12,798 nt of DNA from Candidatus Hermodarchaeum yapensis. Lineage in GTDB: Archaea; Asgardarchaeota; Hermodarchaeia; Hermodarchaeales; Hermodarchaeaceae. Numbering within the stretch: the first letter of the stretch is position 1; each line of letters starts with the position of its first letter. The position numbers were made by a program, and so were the translations under genes. The stretch is from the NCBI GenBank assembly GCA_016840405.1, contig JAEOSK010000051.1, forward strand, positions 1-12,798, read 5' to 3'. Below, piece by piece: positions 602-4,419 of the stretch. The notes beneath the pieces were generated by a model. It was not told the origin of the DNA. It searched no databases and worked only from the letters and a program-made list of their open reading frames with translations.

Positions 602-639
602 AGAGGAAATGAATTCTTAGGAGGTGATCCAGCCGCAGG

Positions 640-671
640 CTAGGGAAACCGGAGACCGTATCTCCGATTTA
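640..671 (-). other. 32-nt ORF-less BHB-like intron after A1519 (helix 45 loop)
   Basis: GTAGGGGAA|TAAATCGGAGATACGGTCTCCGGTTTCCCTAG|CCTGCGG. Helix GGGG/CCCU, bulges AA|U and AG|CC (relaxed 4-nt), 10-bp intron stem. Confidence 0.9.
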
Positions 672-804
672 TTCCCCTACGGCTACCTTGTTACGACTTC
701 TCCCCCCTTGCCGAGCTCCGATTCGACACCACCCACCCTGCTGCCGAAGCGGCTGGGTGGACAGCGGCTCATCCAAACTTGACTCGGGTGGAGCGACGGG
801 CGGT

Positions 805-835
805 CTACACTCCAGACACACACTGTTGACTGGAT
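805..835 (-). other. 31-nt ORF-less BHB-like intron after C1397
   Basis: TTGCACAC|ATCCAG...CTGGAGTGTAG|ACCGCCCGTC. Helix GCAC/GUGU, bulges AC|A and AG|A, inner stem UCCAG/CUGGA. Confidence 0.9.
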
Positions 836-1317
836 GTGTGCAAGGAGCAGGGACGTATTCACCGCCTGGTGTTGACAGGCGATTACTAGGCATTCCATGT
901 TCACGACGGCGGGTTGCAGCCGTCGATCCCGACTGTGCCCGGGGTTGTGAGATTAGCTTCTCCTTTCGGGGTTGCGGCCCATTGTCCCGGGCTTTGCAGC
1001 CCGCGTGTGGCCCGGAAGTTTCGGGGCATACTGACCTGCCGTGGCCCCCGCCTTCCTCTGCTTTCTCAGCAGCGGTCCCCTTAGTGTGCCCGGCTACCCC
1101 GAGGGGTATCGCTGGCAACTAAGGGTGGGGGTCTCGTTCGTTGCCTCACTTAAGAGGACAGCTCACGCCACGAACTGGCGACGGCCATGCACCTCCTCTC
1201 AGCGCGTCAGATAAGGTCATCAGCCTGATCGTCATACTGCTGTCGCCTCCGGTAAGTTTTCTGGCGTTGAATCCAATTGAACCGCAGGCTTCACGCCTTG
1301 TGGTGCTCCCCCGCCAA

Positions 1318-1958
1318 TTCAGGGAAAGAGAGCAGTTAGCATCTTTTGGAATCTTTTCCGTTTTTCTGAGTGACATGTACCTATTTCTTGAAAATATCGT
1401 GCAAGTTCTTTCTTTCTTGTAAGTCTGAACTGCCAACATTTACCTGTAAGCGTAATTTTTGTTGGGTGGTATACTTTGTTGGTAAGGATATTTCTGATAA
1501 ACTCTAGAGCAGGTCGATTCTTCTGATCAAATGAGATGTAAGTCTGTTTTGTTGTTTTTGGGAGTCCTCCTTCGGCATCCCAAAAGCCACGGACATAGTC
1601 AATTTGAGATGCTTCAGGTAGGGTATGTACTATTGAAGGTGTTTCCCAGGAACCCTGGGGAACTTCGATTTCTGATACTTCAACTATTCTTAGAACAACG
1701 GCTTTGGTAGTGATCCGAAGGATTGAGTATTCACCGTGAGGTGTAATATTACCTCCGTAATCAAATAGTTCTTTGAAGATAGATTGAAGGAATTGTAACC
1801 AACTTACATCCTTCTGACCAATTTTCACTTCGTAATTTTTGCCTACTCGAATATCTGTCGTAGCATCTCTGAGCGCTCCAAGCAGATAAGCGAGTTTATC
1901 CATGAGAGATCACTCGAATATTTAGATTTAAAGATACTAATTGCGCGGCTCCCTTTCT
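1318..1958 (-). mobile_element. 641-nt BHB-like intron after A919 carrying a homing endonuclease
   Basis: Interrupts AAAGGAA|TTGGCGG. 10-bp terminal stem GAAAGGGAGC/GCUCUCUUUC, bulges AA|A and AA|U around AAGG/CCUG (one mismatch). Boundary is ambiguous by 3 nt and was placed by BHB geometry. Confidence 0.9.
1319..1903 (-). CDS. Two-motif LAGLIDADG homing endonuclease (intron 919)
   Basis: Motifs LAYLLGALRDAT (degenerate) and YVRGFWDAEGG. 194 aa, lying wholly within the intron, with its TGA in the last 4 nt of the intron. Confidence 0.9.
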   Translation of the reverse strand: MDKLAYLLGALRDATTDIRVGKNYEVKIGQKDVSWLQFLQSIFKELFDYGGNITPHGEYSILRITTKAVVLRIVEVSEIEVPQGSWETPSIVHTLPEASQIDYVRGFWDAEGGLPKTTKQTYISFDQKNRPALEFIRNILTNKVYHPTKITLTGKCWQFRLTRKKELARYFQEIGTCHSEKRKRFQKMLTALFP

Positions 1959-1969
1959 TTCCTTTAAGT

Positions 1970-2012
1970 GTGCTGGGGAGACAACTCGTTGTCTCAACAC
2001 TCTTGTCACCCT
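1970..2012 (-). other. 43-nt ORF-less canonical BHB intron after A908
   Basis: AAG-GCUG-AA|A-GGG...CCC-CAGC-AC|A-CUU is a textbook BHB. Internal hairpin GAGACAAC/GUUGUCUC. Confidence 0.93.
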
Positions 2013-2131
2013 TTCAGCCTTGCGACCGTACTTCCCAGGCGGCGGGCTTAACGCCTTCGCTTCGGCACCGGACCGGCTCGTAGCCGGACCGACACCTAGC
2101 CCGCATCGTTTACGGCCAGGACTACCCGGGT

Positions 2132-2163
2132 TTTTAGCCCGGATGCTCTCTGAGCATCGGAGT
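2132..2163 (-). other. 32-nt ORF-less BHB intron after U793 (790 loop, helix 24)
   Basis: GGATTAGAT|ACTCCGATGCTCAGAGAGCATCCGGGCTAAAA|ACCCGGG. Helix UUAG/CUAA, bulges AU|A and AA|A. Confidence 0.92.
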
Positions 2164-2234
2164 ATCTAATCCGGTTCGCTCCCCTGGCTTTCATCCATCA
2201 CCGTCGGACGCGTTCCAGCCGAGCGCCTTCGCCA

Positions 2235-2937
2235 TTCACCAGATGATAGCATTAAATGCACATGTTATCAAGCTTGATTTGTTTTTCAGGGTGCTGAATT
2301 GGTATCAGTTTCCTGAATCTTTGAAAGTTGACTTTGTTAGTGATCCAAATTCGTTTGGATACAACGGTTTCGTTGTTGGGTTTGGTTTTTTCTTGATCAT
2401 GTTTGACTTCGGAAGTTTGTATGCTTAGATCTTCAAGCAGTTTTGAAATCTCCTGTAGATATTGAATCAAGGAGGCTTCAAGAGGCTTGATTTTTGCATG
2501 TTTCAGCACGATCTGCATACAGTTTCGTTCATCACGAAAGTATCCGTCATCATCGAAGACTGCGCTTAGAAAACTGGTTTTCAGTGTTTGTGTCCCTGTA
2601 CGTATCCAATTGGGTACCGAAAGATCCTGATGAATCTTCGAACCCTTTGGTGCGCCTTGAGAATGTAAAGTTCTGCCAACTTTTGCTGAGAATTGTTGTT
2701 GGCGGACACCTTTGCCAGATTTTCTTTGGCAGACATCGAAATCGCCAAATTCCTCTGAAACCATGTGTGTGACGTATTCATGAAGCGAGTTACTGGAATT
2801 GGTGTAGATTAGGTAGAACTTGGTAGTGTGGATATATCCATCACCGAAGGCATGTCCTACTAATCTCGCAATTCTTTCGTTCGCCATATACTGTTGTCAA
2901 AGGTAAATGTGCACTTAAGGTCAACTACTACCATCTT
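2235..2937 (-). mobile_element. 703-nt BHB intron after G722 carrying a homing endonuclease
   Basis: CACCAG|AAGATGGTAG...CTATCATCTGGTGAA|TGGCGAAGG. Helix CACC/GGUG, bulges AG|A and AA|U, 9-bp inner stem. Confidence 0.93.
2252..2887 (-). CDS. Two-motif LAGLIDADG homing endonuclease (intron 722)
   Basis: Motifs LVGHAFGDGYI and FLSAVFDDDGY, with a VPNWI linker typical of intein/archaeal-intron LAGLIDADG enzymes. 211 aa inside the intron. Confidence 0.92.
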   Translation of the reverse strand: MANERIARLVGHAFGDGYIHTTKFYLIYTNSSNSLHEYVTHMVSEEFGDFDVCQRKSGKGVRQQQFSAKVGRTLHSQGAPKGSKIHQDLSVPNWIRTGTQTLKTSFLSAVFDDDGYFRDERNCMQIVLKHAKIKPLEASLIQYLQEISKLLEDLSIQTSEVKHDQEKTKPNNETVVSKRIWITNKVNFQRFRKLIPIQHPEKQIKLDNMCI

Positions 2938-3145
2938 CTGGTGGTCCCCCTAGGATCACAGGATTTCACCCCTACCCTAGGAGTACCCTCGGCCTCTCCC
3001 GCTCCCAAGCCCTGTAGTATTCTCAGCGGCCCAACCGTTGAGCGGCTGGATTTGACCAAGAACTTGCGGGGCCGGCTACGAATGCTTTAGGCCCAATAAA
3101 CATCCCGACCACTTGAGGAGCTGGTTTTACCGCGGCGGCTGGCAC

Positions 3146-3265
3146 ATAGGCTCGACCAAGAAGAATGTGATAAGCGTTATACTTCATAACGTAGTCGCGC
3201 GTGTTCAGGGAGACGTTACGAAGAGTGTTCTTGTTATTTTATTGTGGGTTTCTTCTTGGATCGAT
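3146..3265 (-). other. 120-nt canonical BHB intron after position 514 (immediately 5' of the 515F site)
   Basis: GGCA-AGGC-UG|A-UCGAUCCAAGAAGAA...UUCUUCUUGGUCGA-GCCU-AU|G-UGCC. Perfect BHB with a long inner stem. Confidence 0.93.
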
Positions 3266-3572
3266 CAGCCTTGCCCTCCCCTTATTCTCCGACGTTCCTA
3301 CTGTCGGCAAAAGCCACGCGATAGCATGGCACTAGGGATGACCCTGTCCCGGTTTCCCGGATTGCAGAGGTTTCGCGATTGCTGCGCCCCGTAGGGCCTG
3401 GGCCTTTGTCTCAGTGCCCATCTCCCGGTTCCCGCTTTCACGGCCGGTACTGATCGATGGCTTGGTGGGCCGTTACCCCACCAACAACCTAATCAGCCGC
3501 TGACCCATCCTCGGGCGCGTACTCCACATGCGGAGCTGGCTTTGGACGACGGACCATTCCAGGCGGCGCCGT

Positions 3573-4046
3573 CTATCGGGGATTAGCCACAGTCTCGGGA
3601 TTGGTGTCATTCCATATATGGAGAATTTGGGAAAGCCCATCTCTGTTAAGATGGTGTTTTTGTTGAACCAAAGCGATGATAGTTCTAAATCGTTCGAGTT
3701 TATCGCGTTTGACAACGACGTACTCACGGAGTAAATCAGTAAACTTGATGAGGCCGGGTAAGTCATGAGTTACCCAGCTGTAGATGTGCCGTTTTTTAAA
3801 GTAATAGACATTCCCTACTTGCATCTTTGATTGAAGGTACTTGAGTATTTCACCGTAGTTCTGTGAAATCTCTATCCGCAAGACGAGCTGGTTTCCGATT
3901 CGATATCTCGAATCGGGTCTCGCCTTGACAAGAAATGAACCTTCCCCATCGAAGAAGCCCGATAGGTATGCTTTGAAGATTTTTGGGTCTTCAGATAAAT
4001 TCGGCTCCATCAATAATTCATCGCTAGTTTCCCTTGTTAACTCCAC
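3573..4046 (-). CDS. Single-motif LAGLIDADG homing endonuclease (intron 161). Genomic stop lies in the downstream exon; start is GTG 4046 or ATG 4010
   Basis: AYLSGFFDGEGSF motif, IEISQ, VVKRDKLERF and KHHLNRDGLSQI segments resembling I-CreI/organellar-type LAGLIDADG proteins. Confidence 0.9.
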   Translation of the reverse strand: MELTRETSDELLMEPNLSEDPKIFKAYLSGFFDGEGSFLVKARPDSRYRIGNQLVLRIEISQNYGEILKYLQSKMQVGNVYYFKKRHIYSWVTHDLPGLIKFTDLLREYVVVKRDKLERFRTIIALVQQKHHLNRDGLSQILHIWNDTNPETVANPR

Positions 4047-4068
4047 AAGTGTTCATATGGCACCAATT
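3594..4068 (-). mobile_element. 475-nt BHB intron after A161 (helix 8 GAAA loop) carrying a homing endonuclease
   Basis: CTACGGGAA|AATTGGTG...CACCAATCCCGAG|ACTGTGGC. Helix CGGG/CCCG, bulges AA|A and AG|A, inner stem AUUGGUG/CACCAAU. Confidence 0.93.
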
Positions 4069-4419
4069 TTCCCGTAGTTGTCCCCGTCCTGAGGGTAGGT
4101 TGTCAACGTGTTACTGAGCGGTTCGCTACTCCTGTACATGGTTACAGGCGTGCAACTTGCATATCTTAGTCTCATCCCTATAGCAGTCGGGTCTGGCAGG
4201 ATCAACCAGTGTTTGGATTGGTCGCAGTGAGATGTATGGAATCCGGTTCCCTGTTGAAGGGAATGGATTGGCGGTGGGTGTGAGTGGGTGCACTAGTCGG
4301 AAATCTAATGTTGCCTGTCAGTTGAGGTGGACGTATCTTCGACCTAAGAGTCCAGGACCCGTGGTGGGTGTGCTGGTTTGCTCAGGTCAGCATCTAGGTG
4401 TGCCGCAGAATGAATGCAG

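Follow-up and report, generated by a model that had tools for sequence, protein, structure and literature searches.

The window analyzed here is a stretch of 12,798 nt (contig JAEOSK010000051.1, positions 1 to 12,798 of the forward strand; assembly GCA_016840405.1) from Candidatus Hermodarchaeum yapensis, and our subject is its 16S rRNA gene on the minus strand at 619..4212, which carries eight candidate introns of the bulge-helix-bulge (BHB) type. The archaeal small-subunit (SSU) model RF01959 covers 619-4212 full-length (cmscan; model 1-1478, 1061 bits), and large unaligned blocks break up the match. We mapped the exons by alignment to intron-less 16S genes of relatives and obtained position numbers by aligning the in silico spliced gene to rrsH of E. 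coli K-12. According to this map, the gene has nine exons separated by eight inserts, which account for 2077 of its 3594 nt (58%), and the spliced 16S rRNA is 1517 nt long. The exons are fully conserved in the alignment to E. coli rrsH, and at 8 of 8 junctions the alignment of the spliced product to E. coli and to the intron-less relatives shows no gap. We found no other 16S match in the genome, which makes this the single 16S gene found.

A sequence-only reading of the same DNA had already proposed the limits of the gene, the sites and lengths of the inserts and a restoration of conserved rRNA by the standard cuts. The RF01959 match gave identical gene coordinates, and the rrsH alignment of the in silico spliced gene reproduced the eight sites, their lengths and the 2077 of 3594 nt exactly. 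The gap-free junctions confirm that the cuts restore conserved rRNA exactly.

Read along the minus strand, exon E1 (4212-4069) is followed by intron I1 (4068-3594), which is 475 nt long and lies after position 161, in the tetraloop of helix 8. Exon E2 (3593-3266) precedes I2 (3265-3146), an insert of 120 nt after 514, immediately 5' of the 515-533 block, that holds no open reading frame (ORF). After E3 (3145-2938) comes I3 (2937-2235), the longest insert with 703 nt, after 722. E4 (2234-2164) and E5 (2131-2013) are separated by the mini-intron I4 (2163-2132), a 32-nt hairpin after 793, in the 790 loop of helix 24. The mini-intron I5 (2012-1970; 43 nt, after 908) and intron I6 (1958-1318; 641 nt, after 919) enclose E6, a micro-exon of 11 nt (1959-1969) corresponding to E. 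coli 909-919. E7 (1317-836) is followed by the mini-intron I7 (835-805), a 31-nt hairpin after 1397 in the decoding centre, and E8 (804-672) by the mini-intron I8 (671-640), a 32-nt hairpin after 1519 in the GGAA loop of helix 45, just 3' of A1518/A1519. E9 (639-619) completes the gene.

The source genome is a metagenome-assembled genome (MAG), 86% complete with 4.4% contamination. It encodes VPS28 (51 bits) and a borderline profilin, both absent from 14 of 14 control prokaryotes, which supports an Asgard archaeon. The class comprises 19 species genomes only, all in one family, and the spliced 16S rRNA is at most 83% identical to the 16S of other Asgard families. Partial 16S genes of two congeners have exons 95% and 91% identical to those of the source gene and share introns with it. 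The host is an Asgard archaeon, probably of the Hermodarchaeia.

Splice motifs, splicing genes and transcripts

We scored every insert border in the canonical register, in which each cut falls within a 3-nt bulge and 2 nt beyond the end of a 4-nt helix strand. The central helix (H) is paired at 4 of 4 positions in seven of the eight introns and at 3 of 4 in I6. In all eight, the 5' bulge measures 3 nt and is followed by an inner helix of 3-11 bp. At several junctions, 2-4 registers yield the same product; the helix is present in one register only and the others score lower. Random cut pairs in the same gene gave H=4 in 1.7% of cases, and H=4 together with an inner helix of at least 3 bp in 0.07%, so the observed set of motifs is far beyond chance.

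The motifs differ in detail. I1 combines H CGGG/CCCG with bulges AAA and AGA, each cut after its second nucleotide, and an inner helix of 7 bp. I2 has an hBHBh' motif (h GGCA/UGCC, H AGGC/GCCU, bulges UGA and AUG, again cut after the second nucleotide). H reads CACC/GGUG in I3, with an inner helix of 11 bp, UUAG/CUAA in I4, GCUG/CAGC in I5, GCAC/GUGU in I7 and GGGG/CCCU in I8, where the inner helix is again 11 bp long. An outer helix beside the 3' bulge is present in I2, in I5 (3 bp) and in I6; it is weak in I3 and absent or displaced in I1, I4, I7 and I8, with none at all in I7. I1, I4, I7 and I8 are therefore relaxed (HBh'/BHL-like) motifs and not strict 3-4-3 BHBs. In minimum-free-energy folds, I2 alone forms a textbook 3-4-3 hBHBh', and I6 and I8 form near-variants. 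The earlier claim of a 4-bp helix with two bulges at every insert thus stands for seven helices, with I6 as the incomplete one, while the outer helix is absent or displaced in four introns. In the 908 and 919 motifs (1959-2020, 1310-1325), the outer helices draw on the same two nucleotides of the micro-exon, U911 and U912. The two motifs can therefore not form simultaneously, which implies sequential splicing.

The genome encodes two EndA paralogues (PF01974; 104 and 71 bits). One of them has the Tyr, His and Lys residues in the expected order and the other one lacks the His, a pair that fits the broad-specificity (alpha-beta)2 architecture. The same pairing is reported for 44 of 60 Asgard genomes (bioRxiv 10.64898/2026.10.13.758758). 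RtcB is also present, on two contig ends.

To follow the transcripts, we placed assembled (Logan) contigs of three wetland metatranscriptomes and of one marine-sediment DNA run on window positions 300-4600. Of the words of the stretch, at least 67% are found in each of six DNA runs from five studies and 25-33% in six wetland metatranscriptomes; the latter is about the share expected from the exons alone. In two RNA runs, contigs contain the exon-exon joint of I3 (2234->2938), with exactly 703 nt skipped, and all three RNA runs contain its circular joint (2937->2235). One I3 circle contig is 733 nt long (703 + 30), the length to be expected of a circle after assembly with 31-mers. RNA contigs also join 3592/3593 to 4068/4069, a jump of 475 nt over I1 that leaves one base ambiguous, and others run from exon 7 through the micro-exon into exon 5 with both I5 and I6 gone (loose-end consensus at 1320). 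RNA depth is zero in the interiors of I1 and I6, which is by itself no evidence; only the contigs that join across them count. It is also zero in the flank at 300-587, so DNA carry-over is unlikely. On the DNA side, contigs of the marine-sediment run bridge I1, I2, I3, I5 and I6 with 0 differences; among the listed DNA contigs, 2132-2174 (I4) stays uncovered, and I7 and I8 are not spanned by any.

Homing endonucleases and occupancy of the same sites

The three long introns each hold a LAGLIDADG endonuclease ORF on the minus strand. All three ORFs are intact, and their LAGLIDADG motifs keep the acidic D/E. The I1 ORF (3573..4010) encodes a single-motif LAGLIDADG_1 protein of 145 aa from an ATG (PF00961, E 1e-10). 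Its PDB matches are I-PanMI (2.8e-18) and the I-OnuI and I-CreI families. When 400 Asgard genomes were queried with it, it was present only in the source genome and in a congener, G004. The two copies are 79-81% identical in protein sequence, with a dN/dS of 0.12. The ORF extends 21 nt beyond the 3' splice site (3573-3594), and exon 2 supplies its last six codons (TVANPR) and its stop. As read, the complete protein is therefore translatable only from the unspliced precursor. The G004 copy aligns to the last residue of the query.

I3 encodes an entirely intronic double-motif LAGLIDADG_3 protein of 211 aa (2252..2887; PF14528), with the motifs LVGHAFGDGY and AVFDDDGYF in the translation. It is 84% identical to the copy of another Asgard genome, G015, with a dN/dS of 0.11. 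I6 encodes a further double-motif LAGLIDADG_3 protein, of 194 aa (1319..1903; PF14528), with the motifs YLLGALRDA and RGFWDAEGG. An ORF in an intron at site 919 of Aenigmarchaeota contig PFTQ01000010.1 shares 46% identity with it, and a scan of named genome contigs with the I6 protein returned one locus only, in this Aenigmarchaeota MAG. A PDB sequence search with the I3 and I6 endonucleases gave no real match. At the DNA level, I1 is 79% identical to the G004 intron and I3 83.6% identical to the G015 intron, and the flanking exons are 90-95% identical. As their dN/dS values show, the I1 and I3 endonucleases are under purifying selection.

We also located the inserts of some 55 Asgard 16S genes or gene fragments; automatic alignment of Asgard and DPANN genes to the reference is accurate to a few nt only. 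An intron at 161 is also present in G004 (476 nt) and in G017 of the sister genus (34 nt), as well as in three genomes from a different Asgard family. In that family, H reads UGGG/CCCA as against CGGG/CCCG in the source gene, an exon C->U change matched by a compensatory intron G->A change. Site 514 is occupied, with the same H, in G017 (135 nt), G015 (831 nt) and G038 (126 nt); the inner helices are unrelated, and no similarity was detected beyond the motif between I2 and the introns of these three genomes. Two Asgard genomes, G015 among them, have an insert at 722, and one, G038, has an insert at 793, with the same H by hand reading (automatic register H=2). At 908, at least 11 further Asgard 16S genes have an insert. 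The Aenigmarchaeota MAG carries at 919 an intron of 655 nt with a 4/4 helix. Site 1397 is occupied in G016, G029, G007 and one DPANN genome, with the same H and with compensating changes in the inner helix. At 1519, the congener G007 holds a homologous intron of 32 nt, again with compensating changes. Shared sites thus keep the same exon half of the helix, and the inner helices differ yet stay paired.

Occupancy is patchy among congeners and across the family. G004 has the 161 intron and lacks that at 514; G007 lacks 908 and 919 and has 977, 1397, 1512 and 1519; G016 has the 1397 intron only. Other Asgard insert sites are ~181, 265, 700, 957, 977, 1057, 1205, 1340, 1360, 1386, 1498, 1512, 1526 and 1530. 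The source gene is the longest among the full-length Asgard 16S genes sampled.

As a control, we sampled 121 genomes of one DPANN phylum, that of the Aenigmarchaeota MAG, and mapped 50 16S genes. The same UUAG/CUAA motif occurs at 793 in 11 of these 50 genes, and sites 1397 and 161 are occupied once each, with the same BHB halves. DPANN 16S genes reach ~3.5 kb and hold up to 10-13 inserts of at least 20 nt, a count that is an upper bound since some may be expansion segments. The source gene is therefore no record in public data. The 16S genes of five DPANN genomes (G453, G481, G461, G499 and G455) are 3.1-3.5 kb long with 7-13 inserts of at least 20 nt, several of them at sites shared with Asgard archaea (793, 908, 916-919, 1360-1368). 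All five sites that the sequence-only reading had singled out as possibly unreported (161, 514, 793, 1397 and 1519) recur among Asgard genomes, and the DPANN phylum sampled shares 161, 793 and 1397 with them. On this comparative basis, the newly noted sites are recurrent hot spots across archaeal phyla. The same reading had placed the gene in a lineage other than Thermoproteales with an active homing system. The Asgard signature proteins bear out the first part; the second is suggested by the dN/dS of two of the three endonuclease genes and by the patchy occupancy.

Weighing of the readings

Motif, comparative and RNA evidence together support eight BHB-type introns, and we consider it very likely that this Asgard archaeon has its only 16S rRNA gene interrupted by eight introns removed by the splicing endonuclease. 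We infer that EndA and RtcB are the acting enzymes and that all five mini-introns are spliced in the source organism.

Several points weigh against this reading. The RNA evidence consists of assembled contigs and not of raw reads. These contigs are 95-99% identical to the window, the intron-bearing ones differing at 3-5%, and they therefore come from a close relative in another habitat and not from the source strain. RNA joints over I2, I4, I7 and I8 are inseparable from rRNA sequence of organisms that lack introns. Those at 639->672 (I8), 700/705->835 (I7), 2127/2129->2160/2162 (I4) and 3142->3266 (I2) have short sides or replaced letters, an RNA contig joint compatible with 2131->2164 (I4) is equally organism-unspecific, and the I8 joint 639->672 also occurs in the DNA run. 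As to the motifs, the H of I6 (AAGG/CCUG) has an A.G at its outer end, next to an inner helix of 10 bp and an outer helix of 3 bp. When folded alone, I3, I4, I5 and I7 prefer competing local structures in minimum-free-energy predictions. I1, I4, I7 and I8 have no proper outer helix, so their cleavage is predicted to depend on a broad-specificity EndA. The proposal that the inserts are spliced out at these junctions is consequently borne out, in contigs of the close relative, by the joint and circle of I3 and by the joints of I1 and of I5 with I6, but those of I2, I4, I7 and I8 say nothing specific to the organism.

The alternative that survives best is nevertheless improbable. The short inserts (793, 1397, 1519, 908 and 514), or some of them, might be excised without religation, or by another nuclease, and leave a fragmented 16S rRNA comparable to that produced by the intervening sequences of bacterial 23S rRNA. 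The organism-unspecific RNA joints of these inserts would agree with this, as would the four relaxed motifs. However, ligation by the same enzyme set is demonstrated at 722 in the close relative, RtcB is encoded in the genome, and cuts placed by the BHB rule recover the conserved rRNA exactly. Moreover, breaks at 1397 and 1519 would fall in the decoding centre and in the loop of helix 45.

It is still harder to believe that the long inserts splice themselves as group I or group II introns, a kind of intron that often bears LAGLIDADG genes. The I1 endonuclease belongs to an organellar group-I-intron family, its closest relatives I-PanMI, I-OnuI and I-CreI all come from group I introns, and archaeal rRNA genes can hold group I introns (PMC6125680). 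However, Rfam searches found no group I, group II or other non-SSU family even at E<=1 in window 1300-4100 (I1-I6), and no group I or group II match above the gathering threshold anywhere in the window. The ORFs occupy 438 of 475, 636 of 703 and 585 of 641 nt of the three long introns, which leaves no room for a ribozyme core. BHB motifs are placed exactly at the insert borders, and the full-length I3 circle is closed at both BHB cut sites.

Retention of the inserts in mature rRNA as expansion segments is just as hard to defend. Asgard large-subunit rRNAs do carry very large expansion segments, but none were found in the SSU rRNA of Lokiarchaeota (PMC7594248). The inserts have BHB motifs and lie inside invariant functional sequence (the 530 region, the 790 loop, the 1400 region and the loop of helix 45) and not in peripheral helices; individual inserts are missing in close relatives, and in RNA I3 and I1 are removed and I3 is circular. 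Finally, the structure might be a dead pseudogene or an artefact of assembly or binning, for which the incomplete and partly contaminated MAG and the documented mis-binning of Asgard 16S genes (PMC13617573) might speak. This is highly improbable given the marine-sediment contigs (which may represent the source sample) that bridge five of the eight introns with 0 differences, the six runs of five studies that hold most of the stretch, the introns shared with two congeners, and the full conservation of the exons in the only 16S gene found.

On the BHB-intron reading, a precursor of ~3.6 kb would be transcribed between long flanking inverted repeats, and each exon-intron pair would fold into a BHB or a relaxed HBh'/BHL motif. 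A two-subunit EndA of the (alpha-beta)2 type would cut both bulges, and RtcB would ligate the exons and circularize the intron. Eight such events would give the 1517-nt 16S rRNA with intact 530, 790, 900-920, decoding-centre and helix-45 sequences. The introns at 161, 722 and 919 would be mobile: their endonucleases, for which DNA cleavage is predicted from sequence, would cut intron-less alleles and spread the introns via gene conversion. As for the five introns without an ORF (31-120 nt), they are most likely remnants or hitch-hikers. Splicing would render them almost neutral, and invariant rRNA supplies half of each motif, which would be why they persist.

We also considered that the mini-introns at 793, 1397 and 1519 are selectively kept and are not neutral debris, which seems unlikely. 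They might serve as a checkpoint, the SSU precursor being unable to decode or to have A1518/A1519 dimethylated before EndA and RtcB have acted. Alternatively, they might act as a shield that guards the chromosomal 16S gene from nucleases targeting the uninterrupted sequence, such as homing endonucleases or TnpB guides. If so, the exon half-motif shared by Asgard archaea and DPANN would reflect function and not tolerance.

Some further features surround the gene. Inverted repeats at 4241-4400 and 419-593 flank it and form the usual archaeal processing stem, with a duplex energy of -101 kcal/mol, and RNA contigs reach into the 16S 5' leader to about 4536. The 23S gene is not linked to the 16S gene and lies on two contig ends (C17:6-2838 and C60:2-2305), which overlap at model positions ~1588-2335 and differ in insert content; its several hundred extra nt suggest 23S introns too, possibly in two variants. 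A tRNA-Cys(GCA) gene at 9893-10001 (-) carries an intron of 31-34 nt at or beside the anticodon loop according to Rfam and to ARAGORN with the intron option; the default ARAGORN run did not report it. About 6 kb from the 16S gene, at 10088-11445 (-), a KH-domain protein of the Krr1/Pno1 (Dim2) type adjoins a RIO1 kinase; both are small-subunit maturation factors. Immediately upstream of the 16S gene, 4609-5502 and 5841-6746 (-) encode two paralogues of ~300 aa, each with an N-terminal helix-turn-helix domain (HTH_20/DUF7347) and a C-terminal Yip1-like membrane domain.

Relation to known introns and meaning for the host

Stable circular rRNA introns bearing LAGLIDADG genes are known from the 23S rRNA of cultured hyperthermophilic Crenarchaeota, where Desulfurococcus mobilis (I-DmoI) and Pyrobaculum organotrophum provided biochemical proof. 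The source-gene introns resemble them in predicted excision of a protein-coding intron at BHB cuts, in a persistent full-length circle and in a double-motif endonuclease of ~190-210 aa; here, the circle is known only from metatranscriptome contigs of a close relative.

For 16S rRNA, the 2015 catalogue of BHB introns lists 13 loci, with at most 5 introns per gene (Table S1; Jay & Inskeep 2015, PMC4496867). The 13 classic loci given in the sequence-only reading are identical to this list, which includes 722, 908 and 919 as known sites. The catalogued introns of Thermoproteales, Desulfurococcales and Caldiarchaeum resemble those described here in their motif and presumed enzymes and in their mix of LAGLIDADG-coding introns with hairpin introns of less than 50 nt. 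They also share the sites 722, 908 and 919, including the close pair of an ORF-less and an ORF-bearing intron, and both sets favour the most conserved rRNA blocks and interrupt universal primer sites. In contrast, the host here is an Asgard archaeon of a mesophilic habitat and not a thermophilic crenarchaeon, its gene holds eight introns as against at most five, five of the sites fall outside the 13 loci, and the introns are A+U-rich. The catalogued locus 1391 interrupts primers that start at 1390 (PMC4496867), so it lies 6 nt upstream of 1397 and is a distinct locus.

Closer in lineage are the heavily interrupted tRNA genes of Asgard archaea (10.64898/2026.10.13.758758), which have the same phylum, motif and enzyme, mostly with two EndA paralogues, and show, like the gene described here, repeated gains at many non-canonical positions. 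That preprint deals with tRNA genes only, and the words 'rRNA' and '16S' are absent from it. Inserts in the rRNA genes of DPANN archaea and of candidate phyla radiation (CPR) bacteria are likewise numerous per gene, in some cases contain LAGLIDADG ORFs and interrupt primer sites (PMC7906910; PMC11270868); they belong to another phylum or domain, the CPR inserts sitting in bacterial rRNA genes. The accessible DPANN papers mention intron-containing 16S genes without a catalogue of sites.

In the searchable literature, outside of which most subscription journals lie, we found no report of BHB introns in Asgard 16S genes or of the five sites. The suggestion that 161, 514, 793, 1397 and 1519 are unreported thus holds for the 2015 catalogue and for the literature that we could search, but the sites recur in public Asgard and DPANN genomes. 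What makes them new is a gap in the literature; in public data they are not rare. Introns of this type are well known. New are the host lineage, the density of introns in a single gene and, by the literature, five of the sites.

These results extend rRNA BHB introns, known mainly from hyperthermophilic Crenarchaeota, to Asgard archaea. The published map of archaeal rRNA intron sites is incomplete, and the recurrence in Asgard archaea and DPANN calls for a census. Judged by primer positions, the introns also lie inside the sites of primers 806R, 907R/926R, 915R and 1392R/1406R; DNA surveys with these primers would therefore miss or mis-size the lineage. Such introns may explain missing 16S genes: the original Hermodarchaeota MAGs yielded 16S fragments of 506 and 1066 bp only, with introns unmentioned (PMC8163825). 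For the organism itself, a sole 16S gene split by eight introns means eight cut-and-rejoin steps per ribosome, and EndA and RtcB would be required for every ribosome that it makes.

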